Virus record (IMG/VR): IMGVR_UViG_3300031992_000042
Coordinates: 1-64,000 of that record
Origin: a virus
Lineage: Duplodnaviria; Caudoviricetes
DNA length: 64,000 nucleotides
Reading direction: 5' to 3' (one strand)
Each line of letters begins with the position of its first letter. Positions within the stretch are counted from its first letter, which is position 1. Positions 2,552 through 6,507 of this stretch are shown one piece after another. Under the pieces are notes generated by a model, which was given only the letters and a program-made list of their open reading frames with translations, was not told the origin of the DNA and did no database searches. Both the position numbers and the translations under genes were made by a program.

Positions 2552-3367
2552 ATGGTAAAAATGAATGAAAAGAAATGTGATATCTGCGGCAGAATAGCAG
2601 ATGAACATCATAAAATATTCTTTAATTCAAAATTAAAATGTTATCTATGTCAAAAACACAAAGCACAAGTTAATAGATATGGCAAGATAATAGATCCAAC
2701 GCAACGAACAACTGCTGATAAGAATGAATACATAATAAAAAATAATTATGCAGAAATTATTATAAGAAACAAAAAAGGCGAAATAAAAGCAATTGGTTTG
2801 ATCGACATAGAAGATATTGAAAAATGTAAAGACATAAAATGGACAACAGACGGAGCATCATATATAAGCGGATCTGTGAAAAAATATAAATTACATAGGT
2901 TTATTTTAAACTATGGTGGTCCACTACAAATAGATCATATTAATAGAAACAAATTTGATAACAGAAAAGAGAATTTACGTATTGTAACTTCATTTGAAAA
3001 TGCTCAGAACAATGGTAAAGCTGGCGTGTCGTTCGATAAGAATGTAAACAAATGGAAAGCAGAGTATCAAAGATACGGTAAATATTATAATGCTGGCACA
3101 TATTGGACAAAAGAAGAAGCAATAGAAGCAAGAAACAAAGCAATACAAGAAACAGAAAAACAAAAAGAAGAATTAATAAAAACATATCAAATAAAAGATG
3201 AAGACCATGTTATTGGCGTAAGACCTTCGCCACATGGCAAATGGGTTGCAAAATATTGCAGCGAGGGAAAAACATTTCATGTTGGGACATTCAATGCAAA
3301 AGAAGAAGCAATTGCAGCAAGAGAAGAATTTATAATAAAATACAAAAATGAAAAAGCGTCTGCTTGA
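2552..3367 (+). CDS. free-standing HNH homing endonuclease with AP2-like DNA-binding domains
   Basis: LHRFIL...IDHINRNKFDNRKENLR HNH motif; two GV...KWxA...GT[FY]...EEAIxAR repeats. Confidence 0.85.
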   Translation: MVKMNEKKCDICGRIADEHHKIFFNSKLKCYLCQKHKAQVNRYGKIIDPTQRTTADKNEYIIKNNYAEIIIRNKKGEIKAIGLIDIEDIEKCKDIKWTTDGASYISGSVKKYKLHRFILNYGGPLQIDHINRNKFDNRKENLRIVTSFENAQNNGKAGVSFDKNVNKWKAEYQRYGKYYNAGTYWTKEEAIEARNKAIQETEKQKEELIKTYQIKDEDHVIGVRPSPHGKWVAKYCSEGKTFHVGTFNAKEEAIAAREEFIIKYKNEKASA

Positions 3368-3392
3368 CGATGTTATACAATACACATATAAT
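3364..3392 (+). promoter_or_regulatory. sigma70/sigmaA promoter upstream of the tRNA half-gene
   Basis: TTGACG-N17-TATAAT. Confidence 0.75.
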
Positions 3393-3495
3393 TAATAAGA
3401 CAAGTTTTTAACAAGATAAACTTGTTGGGTAGTATGTGGGGTTACGGCACAAATTTTTTCAAATTATTATAAGCCAAAACCTTGCTGCATAATAC

Positions 3496-3540
3496 GGAGC
3501 GGTAAGCAAGTGGTTATAAGCTCACTGACTCGAAATCAGT
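3496..3540 (+). tRNA. 5' half of tRNA-Ser(CGA), truncated after the anticodon stem
   Basis: GGAGCGG-TA-AGC AAGTGGTTATAA GCT-C-ACTGA CT CGA AA TCAGT; no variable arm, T-arm or 3' acceptor strand follows. Confidence 0.75.
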
Positions 3541-3553
3541 AATTGTATAAACT

Positions 3554-3598
3554 AAAATCGTTGAAGTTATTGAAGTTTACTTCAACGACTTTTCATTT
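3554..3598 (+). terminator. hairpin/terminator just downstream of the att core
   Basis: tcgttgaagt...acttcaacga then cttttcattt. Confidence 0.55.
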
Positions 3599-3650
3599 GT
3601 TGGGTAATTGCGGGGTAATAGGATAAAAACAAAAGGATCGGTGAAGTGAA

Positions 3651-3815
3651 ATGAATGAAAAAGATTTAATAGGAAAAACGATTGAAAAAATAGACATCGA
3701 CGGATACGGTGTTGAGATACGTTTCACTGACGGAACTGTATTTGAGTATAGCGCGTCAGATGGCGGTTATTCGTATTGGGACATATCGAAAGTTGGTGAA
3801 AAAGATAATTTATAG
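3651..3815 (+). CDS. 54-aa hypothetical protein (not in ORF track)
   Basis: MNEKDLIGKTIEKIDIDGYGVEIRFTDG...; follows the GGTGAAGTG junction motif. Confidence 0.6.
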   Translation: MNEKDLIGKTIEKIDIDGYGVEIRFTDGTVFEYSASDGGYSYWDISKVGEKDNL

Positions 3816-3830
3816 GTAGGTGTTATTTGA

Positions 3831-4040
3831 ATGGTAGGTATGAGTCACGACAAAGATAAGTTCAAACCACTGCAAGAATATCTTGACAGTATACCTGAAC
3901 CAAAATGGTGGCAACTCAAAACTCGGCTTATTATATTGTGGTCAAACTTAATTGATGATATTACTATCTGGAAATGGAACAGAAAGCAAAAACAATGGAA
4001 TGGAAGAAAGAACAGAACCAGATATAAAGGTTGCGGTTGA
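3831..4040 (+). CDS. hypothetical protein
   Basis: AGGT RBS, ORF track. Confidence 0.5.
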   Translation: MVGMSHDKDKFKPLQEYLDSIPEPKWWQLKTRLIILWSNLIDDITIWKWNRKQKQWNGRKNRTRYKGCG

Positions 4041-4269
4041 GTGTGTTGGGCAGAACTGCCTAAAATGCCAGACGAATATAAAGACAGAGGAATGCTATGA
4101 CGGAAGAAGTTAAATTTACATGTCCTATGTGCGGCAAAGAATGGATAGAAGAACAAAACACAAAAGATGACTGGTTTAGGCTTGGCACTAAACAGACTCT
4201 TTGCGCAGAATGCAGTAATAAAGAAATTAGAAAAATAAAAGAAAGTCAACAACGGAGTCAAGAAATAAT

Positions 4270-4470
4270 ATGACATATATAGAATGTGTACTACAAGTTT
4301 TAAAATACGCTGGATATGTTGCATGGTTTGTTGTTTCAGTCGCATTAGCAGGGTTTGGAATAAGTAAGCACATAGAATGGGAAGACTCATGGGTAAGTAA
4401 TATATCTTTAATAATTGGAGTTATTTCAATTATATGTTTTATTGCGTTTTGTGTTTATAAATGCCAATAA
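4270..4470 (+). CDS. small two-TM membrane protein
   Basis: two hydrophobic segments. Confidence 0.6.
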   Translation: MTYIECVLQVLKYAGYVAWFVVSVALAGFGISKHIEWEDSWVSNISLIIGVISIICFIAFCVYKCQ

Positions 4471-4485
4471 GAAAGTAGGCTTATT

Positions 4486-4878
4486 ATGTTTTTATTTATA
4501 TTTTTATGTATGCTGTTCTGTCATATTGTAGACGACTATTATCTTCAAGGCGTACTTGCGAAGATGAAACAAATATCCTGGTGGCAAGAACAAACAAAAG
4601 ATCCTATATATCAAAACGACTGGTTGCCAGCACTAATTGCTCATGGTGTTTCTTGGTCGTTTATGGTAACGCTACCGTGTAATATTTATTTACTTATAAA
4701 CAAGCCAGACAGTATATATCTGTTCTCTATTATGTTTGTATTTAATGCATATCTTCATTGTAAAATAGATAACGATAAATGCAATAAGCACGAAATAAAC
4801 TTAATTACTGATCAATGTATGCATTTATTTCAAATAGGTATCACGTTCTTTAACTTTTTAGTAATAGTATTAACATGA
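4486..4878 (+). CDS. DUF3307-like membrane protein
   Basis: HIVDDYYLQ...H...H..ID..K...DQCMH pattern. Confidence 0.7.
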   Translation: MFLFIFLCMLFCHIVDDYYLQGVLAKMKQISWWQEQTKDPIYQNDWLPALIAHGVSWSFMVTLPCNIYLLINKPDSIYLFSIMFVFNAYLHCKIDNDKCNKHEINLITDQCMHLFQIGITFFNFLVIVLT

Positions 4879-4888
4879 GGAAAAATAA

Positions 4889-5206
4889 ATGGATGAACAA
4901 AAATATTATTTTATAACTGTATTTGAAAAAGTTGATTTAGATGATCTAGGCTGGACAGATACTGGTTGTCAAAGAACATGGGGGTTCTACACAGATAAAG
5001 AAACAGCGTTTCAATGCGTGCATGAAAACTGGACAGACTTAGAAGAAACTATTTATCGCTATGCTTTAATCGAAGAATACACAGAAGGTATAGGACATTG
5101 GACAGGCTATAGACAATGGTTTAGGTTTGATCTTGAAAAGAAAGGGTATGTTGAAATAGATGAACCAGAAGGATACAACCACTTCAGCTGTTTTGCGTTC
5201 GGATGA
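4889..5206 (+). CDS. hypothetical phage protein
   Basis: GAGG RBS; 105 aa. Confidence 0.65.
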   Translation: MDEQKYYFITVFEKVDLDDLGWTDTGCQRTWGFYTDKETAFQCVHENWTDLEETIYRYALIEEYTEGIGHWTGYRQWFRFDLEKKGYVEIDEPEGYNHFSCFAFG

Positions 5207-5340
5207 AATTCATCTATATATCCCAAAAGGATCTCAAAAAAGACTTTCTGTTTTAGTACAAGCAACGGAATACTGGAAGCAAGGATATAAAGTTATTATA
5301 CATGATTTTGGAGAAGGCGTTATACGTACTTTTTATTCGT

Positions 5341-6453
5341 TTACTCAATCGAATCAACAACAGTCTTAAGATCTTCAAGCGGACTGCTTTGATAGACTTG
5401 CCTGGTAAATGAATAGTCGCTATGTCCAATAAGAGCAGCTTTGTCTCGAACATCGCCGTCAGCCTTTTTAAGTTTGTCTGCGTAACTGTGTCGAGCAGAA
5501 TATGGCACTTTATTACCTGTTATTCCCAGCTGGCTTGCAATAGGTTTGAAGACTGACTCGTCGAAGTAGTTGACGGTCATCCTGCGAAGTTCTTTTAATT
5601 CTTTTGTACCACGCTTGTAGAAATAAAAGGGAAATAAATAGTCTGTACCTTCTACACTCAGCCGCTCTAATATAATAGGAAGAATTTGCTTCGGAACGAT
5701 AACCCGGCGATTAATTCCGGCAGCTGTTTTCTTTCCTTCAGTTATGTAATAAACCAATTCGTCGTTTATTGTTTCACAGTTAACTTGTTCTTTCTTTATT
5801 TCAAGGAACTCGCCCGGACGGAACCCAAGATAACAAAGGCAGTATATATAGTCGCAATATTGGATCTTACCGATATTGTCTTTTATCTTTTTTATGTCTT
5901 CCGGAGACAATGGTTCTCTCGGTTTTGTTTCGTGTTTACCGATATAAAGGTTTTCTGTTATGTCTTTCTTTACTTTGTTCGTATCAAAAGCATAAGCCCA
6001 GATAAGACCTGCTGTTACCTTCATCATTTGATGAGTTCGTTTGCCTTTAGGACAAGCGTCCATACATGACTGGAGCTCTGCTGCAGTTATTGTGTTTATT
6101 CTACGATACTTTAACTCTGAAAAATAATTATATGCTTGCTCGTAGCCTTTAAGCGTTTTAGGGGCGACCCGTCCTTCATATGCTTTCTTCCAAGCTTGAA
6201 ATGCTTCGTCAAGAGAAGTCTTAGTATTTTCTAATTCTTCTCCGTTAAGTATTTTATTTAGCGCGGCTAAAGCTTCTTTCTTGGTTTTATAGCCGCAGAA
6301 TCTTTTCTTAACAGGAACCAGATGACCACCTTCTTTAATAGGTGGTTTCCAACCTATTGTAATCTGAGCAACCCAACACTTACGCTCAGCTAAATAATAA
6401 ACCGAACCTTGTTTGTTACCCCTGGACTTAGGTTTCCGTTTATGTTCGCTCAT
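5341..6453 (-). CDS. int: tyrosine integrase
   Basis: N-terminal arm-binding-like RGNKQGSVY..WVA; catalytic GFRPGE, K, YSARH, LIGH, Y; AGGAG RBS before ATG 6453. Confidence 0.92.
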   Translation of the reverse strand: MSEHKRKPKSRGNKQGSVYYLAERKCWVAQITIGWKPPIKEGGHLVPVKKRFCGYKTKKEALAALNKILNGEELENTKTSLDEAFQAWKKAYEGRVAPKTLKGYEQAYNYFSELKYRRINTITAAELQSCMDACPKGKRTHQMMKVTAGLIWAYAFDTNKVKKDITENLYIGKHETKPREPLSPEDIKKIKDNIGKIQYCDYIYCLCYLGFRPGEFLEIKKEQVNCETINDELVYYITEGKKTAAGINRRVIVPKQILPIILERLSVEGTDYLFPFYFYKRGTKELKELRRMTVNYFDESVFKPIASQLGITGNKVPYSARHSYADKLKKADGDVRDKAALIGHSDYSFTRQVYQSSPLEDLKTVVDSIE

Positions 6454-6477: not shown

Positions 6478-6507
6478 ATTATAATCCGGTGGGGTAGTAG
6501 ATGTCAA
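6478..6507 (-). promoter_or_regulatory. integrase promoter
   Basis: TTGACA-N18-TATAAT on - strand, 25 nt upstream of the int start. Confidence 0.8.

Follow-up and report, generated by a model that had tools for sequence, protein, structure and literature searches.

Anatomy of the site

We analysed the first 64 kb (64,000 nt, hereafter the window) of the 105.7-kb IMG/VR virus record IMGVR_UViG_3300031992_000042 (G000; completeness 77% by CheckV), which belongs to a group of large SPbeta-like phages of ~150 kb from the ruminant gut and probably came from a sheep gut sample. An earlier note, made from the sequence alone, had read a short region near the start of the window as a phage attachment site (attP) that supplies a promoter and the 5' half of a tRNA-Ser(CGA) gene. 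On the plus strand, positions 3364-3622 hold, in this order, a promoter, two arm repeats, an A/T-rich spacer, the 5' half of the tRNA, a hairpin and two further arm repeats:

3364..3392, plus strand: sigma-70-type promoter, TTGACG-17-TATAAT, score 11/12, directed into the arm sites and the tRNA half
3422..3447, plus strand: P arm, two direct arm-type repeats, TTGTTGGGTAGTA (3422-3434) and TGTGGGGTTACGG (3435-3447)
3448..3495, plus strand: A/T-rich spacer from the P arm to the tRNA start, partly conserved in relatives (ACAA-TTTT-AA-TT in the consensus of alignment A1)
3496..3540, plus strand: nucleotides 1-45 of a class II tRNA-Ser(CGA), with the acceptor 5' strand, the D arm and the whole anticodon arm
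3524..3540, plus strand: anticodon arm ACTGA-CTCGAAA-TCAGT, the presumed core, with its loop at 3529-3535 and the anticodon CGA at 3531-3533
3558..3598, plus strand: intrinsic-terminator-like hairpin (stem 3558-3567 / 3579-3588, 10 bp, 11-nt loop) and T-rich tail
3597..3622, plus strand: P' arm, two direct arm-type repeats, TTGTTGGGTAATT (3597-3609) and GCGGGGTAATAGG (3610-3622)

The four components that the earlier note had named, i.e. a near-consensus promoter, a tRNA-Ser(CGA) 5' half, a terminator-like hairpin immediately behind it and paired arm-like repeats on both sides, were all found. The promoter is one of just four sites that score at least 11/12 on both strands of the window (128 kb). 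The arm repeats are all direct and lie at -74/-61 and +102/+115 relative to tRNA position 1. The hairpin has a folding energy of -12 kcal/mol (z = -2.6 against shuffled sequences) and is directly followed by CUUUUCAUUU; it was overlooked by a simple terminator scan because the scan allows loops of up to 8 nt, whereas the loop here has 11 nt. An A-run on the 5' side of the hairpin would also make termination on the minus strand possible. We infer promoter function at 3364 and terminator function at 3558 from these motifs, and the spacer at 3448-3495 may be the site of a bending protein.

The tRNA half and its bacterial counterparts

The sequence at 3496-3540 comprises the acceptor strand GGAGCGG, U8-A9, a 3-bp D stem (AGC/GCU), a D loop with GG and the anticodon arm ACUGA-CUCGAAA-UCAGU, and it pairs correctly throughout. 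ARAGORN detected no complete tRNA in the window, and the Rfam tRNA model is blind to half tRNAs in the window and in its relatives. A degenerate pattern derived from the fragment retrieved more than 100 tRNA-Ser(CGA) genes, mostly from gut Clostridia with some from Negativicutes and Peptoniphilaceae; by design of the search pattern, all of these genes start with GGAGCGGUA and contain CUGACUCGAAAUC. The window fragment agrees with the Bacillota genes at 38 of its 45 positions, which is more than chance would give. The seven mismatches (within positions 1-42) all fall in the D arm, only positions 1-9 and 27-45 matching known genes. The D stem is swapped with compensation (AGC/GCU vs UCG/CGG) and is still paired: A10-U25, G11-C24 and C12-G23 stand in place of the U10-G25, C11-G24 and G12-C23 of the bacterial genes. 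When the 45 nt of the window were joined in silico to the 3' half of six bacterial genes, ARAGORN identified all six hybrids as tRNA-Ser(CGA) of 89 nt with every stem paired. Compensated D-stem changes among the phage copies are what would be expected if the half must work as part of a tRNA. A 3' half (ending CCGCUCC), whose presence elsewhere in the phage would point to a disrupted phage tRNA gene, was found neither in the 105.7-kb record nor in two complete relatives (G001 and G002), which leaves the attachment-site reading standing.

The integrase

An intact integrase gene (int) lies 1.8 kb from the site and is transcribed toward it:

5341..6453, minus strand: tyrosine integrase, ~370 aa from the ATG at 6453 (PF00589, 34 bits, above the cut-off; phrog_1, 4.9e-35)
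6478..6507, minus strand: integrase promoter, a perfect TTGACA-18-TATAAT, with the arm-type motif TGGGGTAGTAG in its spacer (6490-6500 on the plus strand)

The protein is at most 35% identical to the integrase of any cultured phage. Metagenomes yielded 777 homologues, with 91% identity for the best of them. R211, K241, R320, H343 and Y353 are invariant in 26 integrase homologues, and the alignment can be read as identifying them as the catalytic residues. At the N-terminus, PF14659 stays just under its cut-off (21.9 vs 22.6 bits), and a few of the metagenome homologues are annotated with PF14657 (Arm-DNA-bind_4). The motif at 6490-6500 is the sole perfect match to the arm consensus KKGGGTARTAG in the window. 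Its position within the int promoter is a hint of autorepression by the integrase, but a relative with a 90% identical integrase (L003) lacks the motif, and we draw no conclusion from it.

Relatives that carry the same module

The same layout occurs in seven related contigs, whose integrases, where the contig has one, are 63-90% identical to that of the window; together with the window they make up a family of eight members (alignment A1). The positions of the arm pairs are conserved in this family (-74/-62 or -62/-50, and +102/+113, from tRNA position 1 in the relatives), and the arm motif tracks the integrase variant, being GGGTA in the window and the 90% relative and TCGGTA in the 63-81% relatives. 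All eight members have a terminator hairpin directly after the tRNA part; the hairpins of G001 and G002 are of unrelated sequence but stand in the same place (-12.9 and -16 kcal/mol). A promoter that scores at least 10/12 or has an extended -10 element lies just upstream of the P arm in five of the eight (the window and four of the seven relatives). The tRNA sequence is kept from exactly G1 in all eight members, and in every relative the fragment ends at the anticodon arm.

G001 (150,780 bp) and G002 (150,578 bp) carry direct terminal repeats, and their completeness is rated at 100%. Their structural protein is 58-76% identical to that of the window phage, and they belong to the same phage family. 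In both genomes the module and int are internal, with int ending ~100 bp from the core; because the module is internal in complete genomes with terminal repeats, the fragment is part of the free phage genome and not a junction between prophage and host.

In five of the relatives, 42-49 nt of the tRNA part are identical to tRNA-Ser(CGA) genes of Bacillota; most of these genes belong to gut Clostridia, and many come from metagenome-assembled genomes of ruminant-gut Clostridia. The first identical position is exactly G1; the last lies at ...CUCGAAAUC in G001 and G002 (an end also written ...CTCGAAATC) and at most 7 bases later in the others, a pattern that a block of identity between attP and the bacterial attachment site (attB) would show. 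Since the right edge of the identity never lies to the left of ...CUCGAAAUC, the crossover should be placed at or before the anticodon loop.

The wider integrase clade and the polarity of its targets

A profile of the 26 integrase homologues led to 45 viral loci. Relatives with integrases of 38-54% identity carry GGTAGTA-type arm pairs around a classical 3' tRNA part, which starts at the anticodon arm; their targets are tRNA-Arg(ACG), tRNA-Pro(GGG) and tRNA-Lys(CUU), and a terminator follows the tRNA 3' end. One relative, with a 45% identical integrase, was found integrated: a 9.6-kb element in the Clostridia genome G1349 (L190, G1349:C12, 5823-15507), at tRNA-Arg(ACG). The integrase-distal end of this element has a complete restored tRNA-Arg(ACG), a terminator supplied by the element and an arm pair, and beside int, 9.6 kb away, 47 nt of the tRNA 3' part recur as a direct repeat, accompanied by a second GGTAGTA-type arm pair. 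The integration of this sister at an anticodon loop indicates that modules of this design in the clade are real attachment sites.

Because the sister integrases use 3'-type sites, both polarities can be compared within one clade. The two kinds of site have in common the arm pairs and a crossover at the anticodon arm, and when all sites are read with the arms as ..GGTAGTA.., the tRNA-derived block always lies on the same side of the core; the restored gene of the 3'-type sites is the integrase-distal one. They differ in that the tRNA strand is opposite to the arm repeats in the 3'-type sites but the same in the Ser(CGA) subclade, and in that the 3'-type sites supply a 3' half with a terminator and have no hairpin on the P' side. 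Judged from these arrangements, the 5'-type site keeps the scaffold as it is and flips only the polarity of the target. A flip of this kind is plausible given the quasi-palindromic sequence of the cores (Ser, GACTCGAAATC; Arg, GACTACGAATC).

Interpretation and alternative explanations

We consider it probable that the site is the attP of a lambda-type (arm-binding) tyrosine integrase whose target, used in reversed polarity, is the anticodon arm of a host tRNA-Ser(CGA) gene; what the phage carries is the part of the gene upstream of the crossover and not the downstream part. The attP reading of the earlier note is supported by the integrase, by the recurrence of the module next to integrases of 63-90% identity and by the integrated sister with 45% identity, all of which is comparative evidence and not evidence from junctions. 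As to a crossover in the anticodon loop, which had also been claimed, the identity edges support a position at or before the loop, and the narrower placement, with strand exchange in or next to the loop CTCGAAA, is one that we infer. After such an exchange, the integrase-proximal junction would get the host promoter together with the host 5' half, and transcription from the strong tRNA promoter, which would otherwise enter the prophage antisense to int, would be halted there by the phage hairpin; through its 5' A-run, the hairpin could also terminate int transcription that reaches it from the opposite side. The far junction would consist of the promoter at 3364, the P arm and the phage 5' half, followed by the host 3' half with the host terminator. 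A complete tRNA-Ser(CGA) would thereby be rebuilt; its transcription would start in phage DNA, RNase P would trim the transcript, and the D stem would in this phage be the one that the phage specifies. The expected left junction (attL) would thus consist of a host-type 5' half (..TCGAAGTGGTCATAACGGGACTGACTCGAAATCAGT) joined to AATTGTATAAAC and the hairpin, and the expected right junction (attR) of 3422-3540 joined to a variable arm and a T arm ending in CCGCTCCGCCA. The 3'-type sisters provide a 3' half and a terminator, and this subclade provides a promoter and a 5' half; nothing argues better than this symmetry for the promoter as part of the design.

Several observations weigh against this interpretation. 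The record is only 77% complete, no recognisable sigma-70 promoter was found within 170 nt in three of the eight members, and searches with Pfam and PHROGs recognised no excisionase or repressor near int. The exact 45-mer of the window had no match in 185,579 species genomes or in IMG/VR, and it differs from the nearest bacterial genes at seven positions of the D arm. Nor was an integrated copy found: no attL or attR of this phage or of the subclade with integrases of at least 63% identity was present among 120 bacterial tRNA-Ser(CGA) loci, integrase searches in ~1,750 sampled Clostridia genomes revealed no lysogen of the subclade, and a metagenome scan for the core and hairpin yielded six contigs with no attL or attR among them, all six being attP since both arm pairs are present in each. 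In four runs, the Logan contigs are broken within the hairpin, at 3577, and do not cover 3394-3555, so that they are uninformative on junctions. All of the lysogen searches are samples, and their outcome amounts to absence of evidence only. Prophage junctions, for which the earlier note had suggested looking, thus came to light for the 45% relative at tRNA-Arg(ACG) and for neither the phage nor its subclade. The fragment had further been proposed as a handle for host prediction. In this respect its resolution proved coarse: with no exact match to the 45-mer, the host can be named only as a member of the Bacillota with a GGAGCGG-type tRNA-Ser(CGA), probably among the gut Clostridia.

The same site could be a working attP and nevertheless give rise to an inert hybrid tRNA, the 45 nt serving as recombination homology only and UCG being read by tRNA-Ser(UGA). 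The D arm of the window, unlike that of every retrieved bacterial tRNA-Ser(CGA) and with pair 11:24 flipped from C-G to G-C, would fit this explanation, as would the tRNA-Ser(UGA) that the phage encodes, the three members without a clear promoter and the other Clostridia elements that merely split tRNA-Ser(CGA) at the same loop. We nevertheless regard it as unlikely: a short core suffices for recombination (10 bp in other elements), yet 8/8 members keep the tRNA from G1, the D stems stay paired through changes on both sides, and the hybrid passes ARAGORN.

A different role for the site is that of a small RNA gene of ~190 nt (~3399-3595) made up of promoter, tRNA half and terminator, which would be expressed in the course of infection and might, e.g., act as a decoy that diverts an anticodon nuclease or a tRNA-binding factor, with recombination as a secondary function. 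Since the fragment lies between a promoter and a terminator in the free phage genome, production of such an RNA is likely; as the primary function of the site, however, it seems very improbable to us, because nothing is conserved or structured beyond the tRNA half and the hairpin, the sole Rfam match is noise (HrrF, E = 5.6), and no account would be given of the arm pairs, of the link with the integrase or of the 3'-type sites of the sisters. The site might finally be a dead remnant, either of a decayed phage tRNA gene or of host DNA acquired through an imprecise excision, the phage having lost the ability to integrate. That no lysogen was found would agree with such an origin, as would the tRNA cluster with homing endonucleases elsewhere in the phage and the HNH gene that abuts the site. 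A remnant would hardly be expected, however, to end at the anticodon arm in every relative between conserved arm pairs, to be 100% identical to host genes in five relatives, or to be accompanied by an integrase whose catalytic residues are kept across 26 homologues, and we give this explanation very little credence.

Neighbouring genes and other features of the phage

The surroundings of the site in the window include the following genes:

2552-3367: HNH endonuclease gene (phrog_99, 3e-34), directly upstream of the attP promoter
3651..5206, plus strand: small genes between attP and int
4486-4878, plus strand: membrane protein with a PHROG match in the moron / auxiliary-gene category

The stop codon of the HNH gene falls within the -35 hexamer of the promoter at 3364, and the contig L141 has the same gene end and promoter. 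Putative AP2-like repeats were read by eye in the HNH endonuclease. The small genes at 3651-5206 are not present in G001 and G002. No DNA similar to the window was found in GenBank phages.

In the 105.7-kb record, ARAGORN identified phage tRNAs for Ser(UGA), at 81.2 kb, Thr, Gln and Asn. A fifth tRNA, at 82643-82716, was found by Rfam only and not by ARAGORN; its anticodon was read as UAU, not CGA. No complete phage tRNA-Ser(CGA) was found by ARAGORN or Rfam in the 105.7 kb, the record being 77% complete. Beyond the window, Rfam also recognised a group I intron (69 bits, G000:C1:81907-82099, L186:1008-1200), the host gene of which was read by eye as tRNA-Leu(UAA), with the 5' exon ...GCGGACTT and the 3' exon AAAATCCGT...; this tRNA-Leu, which ARAGORN misses, lies in a tRNA cluster mixed with HNH endonuclease genes.

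In a relative from goat gut (run X3, 10,269-nt contig), unrelated sequence, ...AAAGCTCAAGAGGTTTTTTATTG, abuts the hairpin and the genes behind it at 3558, and no tRNA fragment occurs in the 30 nt visible beyond 3558. The same contig has insertions or replacements of 216 nt and 224 nt at 3800 and 3988-4042.

Other elements at the same tRNA-Ser(CGA) loop

Sixteen bacterial loci have 5'-half-only copies of tRNA-Ser(CGA) that end exactly at CUCGAAAUC. They were considered as displaced halves left by 5'-type elements and rejected as such, because in two genomes (G007 and G008) the matching 3' halves lie at the other junction and no restored 5' part is present. These 3' halves start with (G)ACTCGAAATC and stand behind different arm repeats (AGTTCTCTCC or GTTCTATCC). 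The elements concerned are Clostridia elements unrelated to the window phage, the attL and attR of which share exactly ACTCGAAATC; they include L058 and L182 (G007:C47 and G007:C23), L185 and L183 (G008:C5 and G008:C33), L027, L051, L061, L082 and L100. With a common core of 10-11 bp, (G)ACTCGAAATC, they split tRNA-Ser(CGA) into a 5' and a 3' half. The G007 element has its own complete tRNA-Ser(CGA) directly inside attL, and several such elements, G007 included, carry a complete tRNA-Ser(CGA) of their own, of different sequence, 45-200 nt inside attL and behind paired AGTTCTCTCC-type repeats.

These elements look like cases of tRNA-dependent lysogeny outside the actinobacteriophages. At two loci (L116:7142-7603 and L051:~4850-5300), tandem 200-bp units, each consisting of a tRNA-Ser 5' half and a spacer that contains TTCTAC repeats, stand in front of a complete tRNA-Ser(CGA); one insertion after another may have left them there as a stack of remnants, or they could be mini-cassettes without an integrase. 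The anticodon loop of tRNA-Ser(CGA) is thus a busy integration point, which says nothing directly on the window phage.

Known systems and significance

Most elements that target tRNA genes restore the 3' part of the gene: among 3,919 islands in the Islander survey, 3,760 have a displaced 3' fragment and 159 (4%) a displaced 5' fragment (Hudson et al. 2015, PMC4383910). In these 5'-type islands, as here, it is the 5' part of the tRNA gene that the island restores, and anticodon-centred sites are a main sublocation; the survey is, however, a database count of integrated islands without attP anatomy, whereas here the attP of a free phage is seen and no integrated form (PMC4383910). Pelagiphages have been shown by PCR to rebuild tRNA-Cys (HTVC021P/022P), tRNA-Leu (HTVC109P) and tRNA-Arg (HTVC120P) with a phage 5' part (Zhao et al., bioRxiv 10.1101/410191). 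They share with the window phage a tyrosine integrase, a crossover inside the tRNA gene, a 5' part supplied by the phage and the possibility of phage-derived base changes, but they are ~40-kb podophages of SAR11 with junctions verified by PCR, whereas the evidence here concerns a ~150-kb SPbeta-like gut phage and is comparative only; the pelagiphage paper makes no mention of a promoter or terminator in the site, both of which are explicit here (10.1101/410191).

The CGA isoacceptor is also the tRNA-Ser that Lactobacillus phage mv4 targets. Like the window phage, mv4 is a temperate phage of Firmicutes with a tyrosine integrase and a tRNA-Ser target, but it integrates at the 3' end of the gene and not at the anticodon loop or in the 5' half (bioRxiv 10.1101/2023.11.06.565760). 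In the tRNA-dependent lysogeny described for mycobacteriophage Fionnbharth and others (Guerrero-Bustamante and Hatfull 2024, PMC10865867), a tyrosine integrase, paired arm sites and a tRNA gene target are likewise combined; the core there is ~10 bp long, the tRNA is not rebuilt and a phage tRNA of the same isotype compensates, whereas here 45 nt from G1 are carried. It is the Clostridia elements of the G007/G008 type that appear to match this mycobacteriophage system (PMC10865867).

The earlier note had presented the 5'-half design as unusual; it is indeed rare, but less unusual than was implied, since the Islander 5' fragments and the pelagiphage sites make it a class already known. What is new here is the phage group, the use of this target in this polarity, the explicit promoter and terminator around the tRNA half and the side-by-side comparison with 3'-type sisters. 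It may well be, and we hold the arguments for and against to be about evenly balanced, that one integrase clade docks on anticodon arms in both polarities, and that in the flipped Ser(CGA) subclade the accessory signals were swapped to suit, so that a promoter precedes the half that is carried and a new terminator follows the host half that is displaced. In that case, simply turning round the polarity on a symmetric target would give rise to 5'-type sites, the pair of promoter and terminator would be a diagnostic and selectable signature of the flip, and lysogens would express a tRNA-Ser with a phage-specified D stem.

The site offers an unusually clean anatomy of a rare 5'-type tRNA attachment site, and the question of what decides between the two halves of a tRNA gene when an integrase replaces one of them would be directly testable in this clade. 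The integrase and attP together are a candidate integration tool for those gut Clostridia that carry the widespread GGAGCGG-type tRNA-Ser(CGA). For the large SPbeta-like phages of the ruminant gut, a site of this kind would mark the group as temperate, with a defined chromosomal target.

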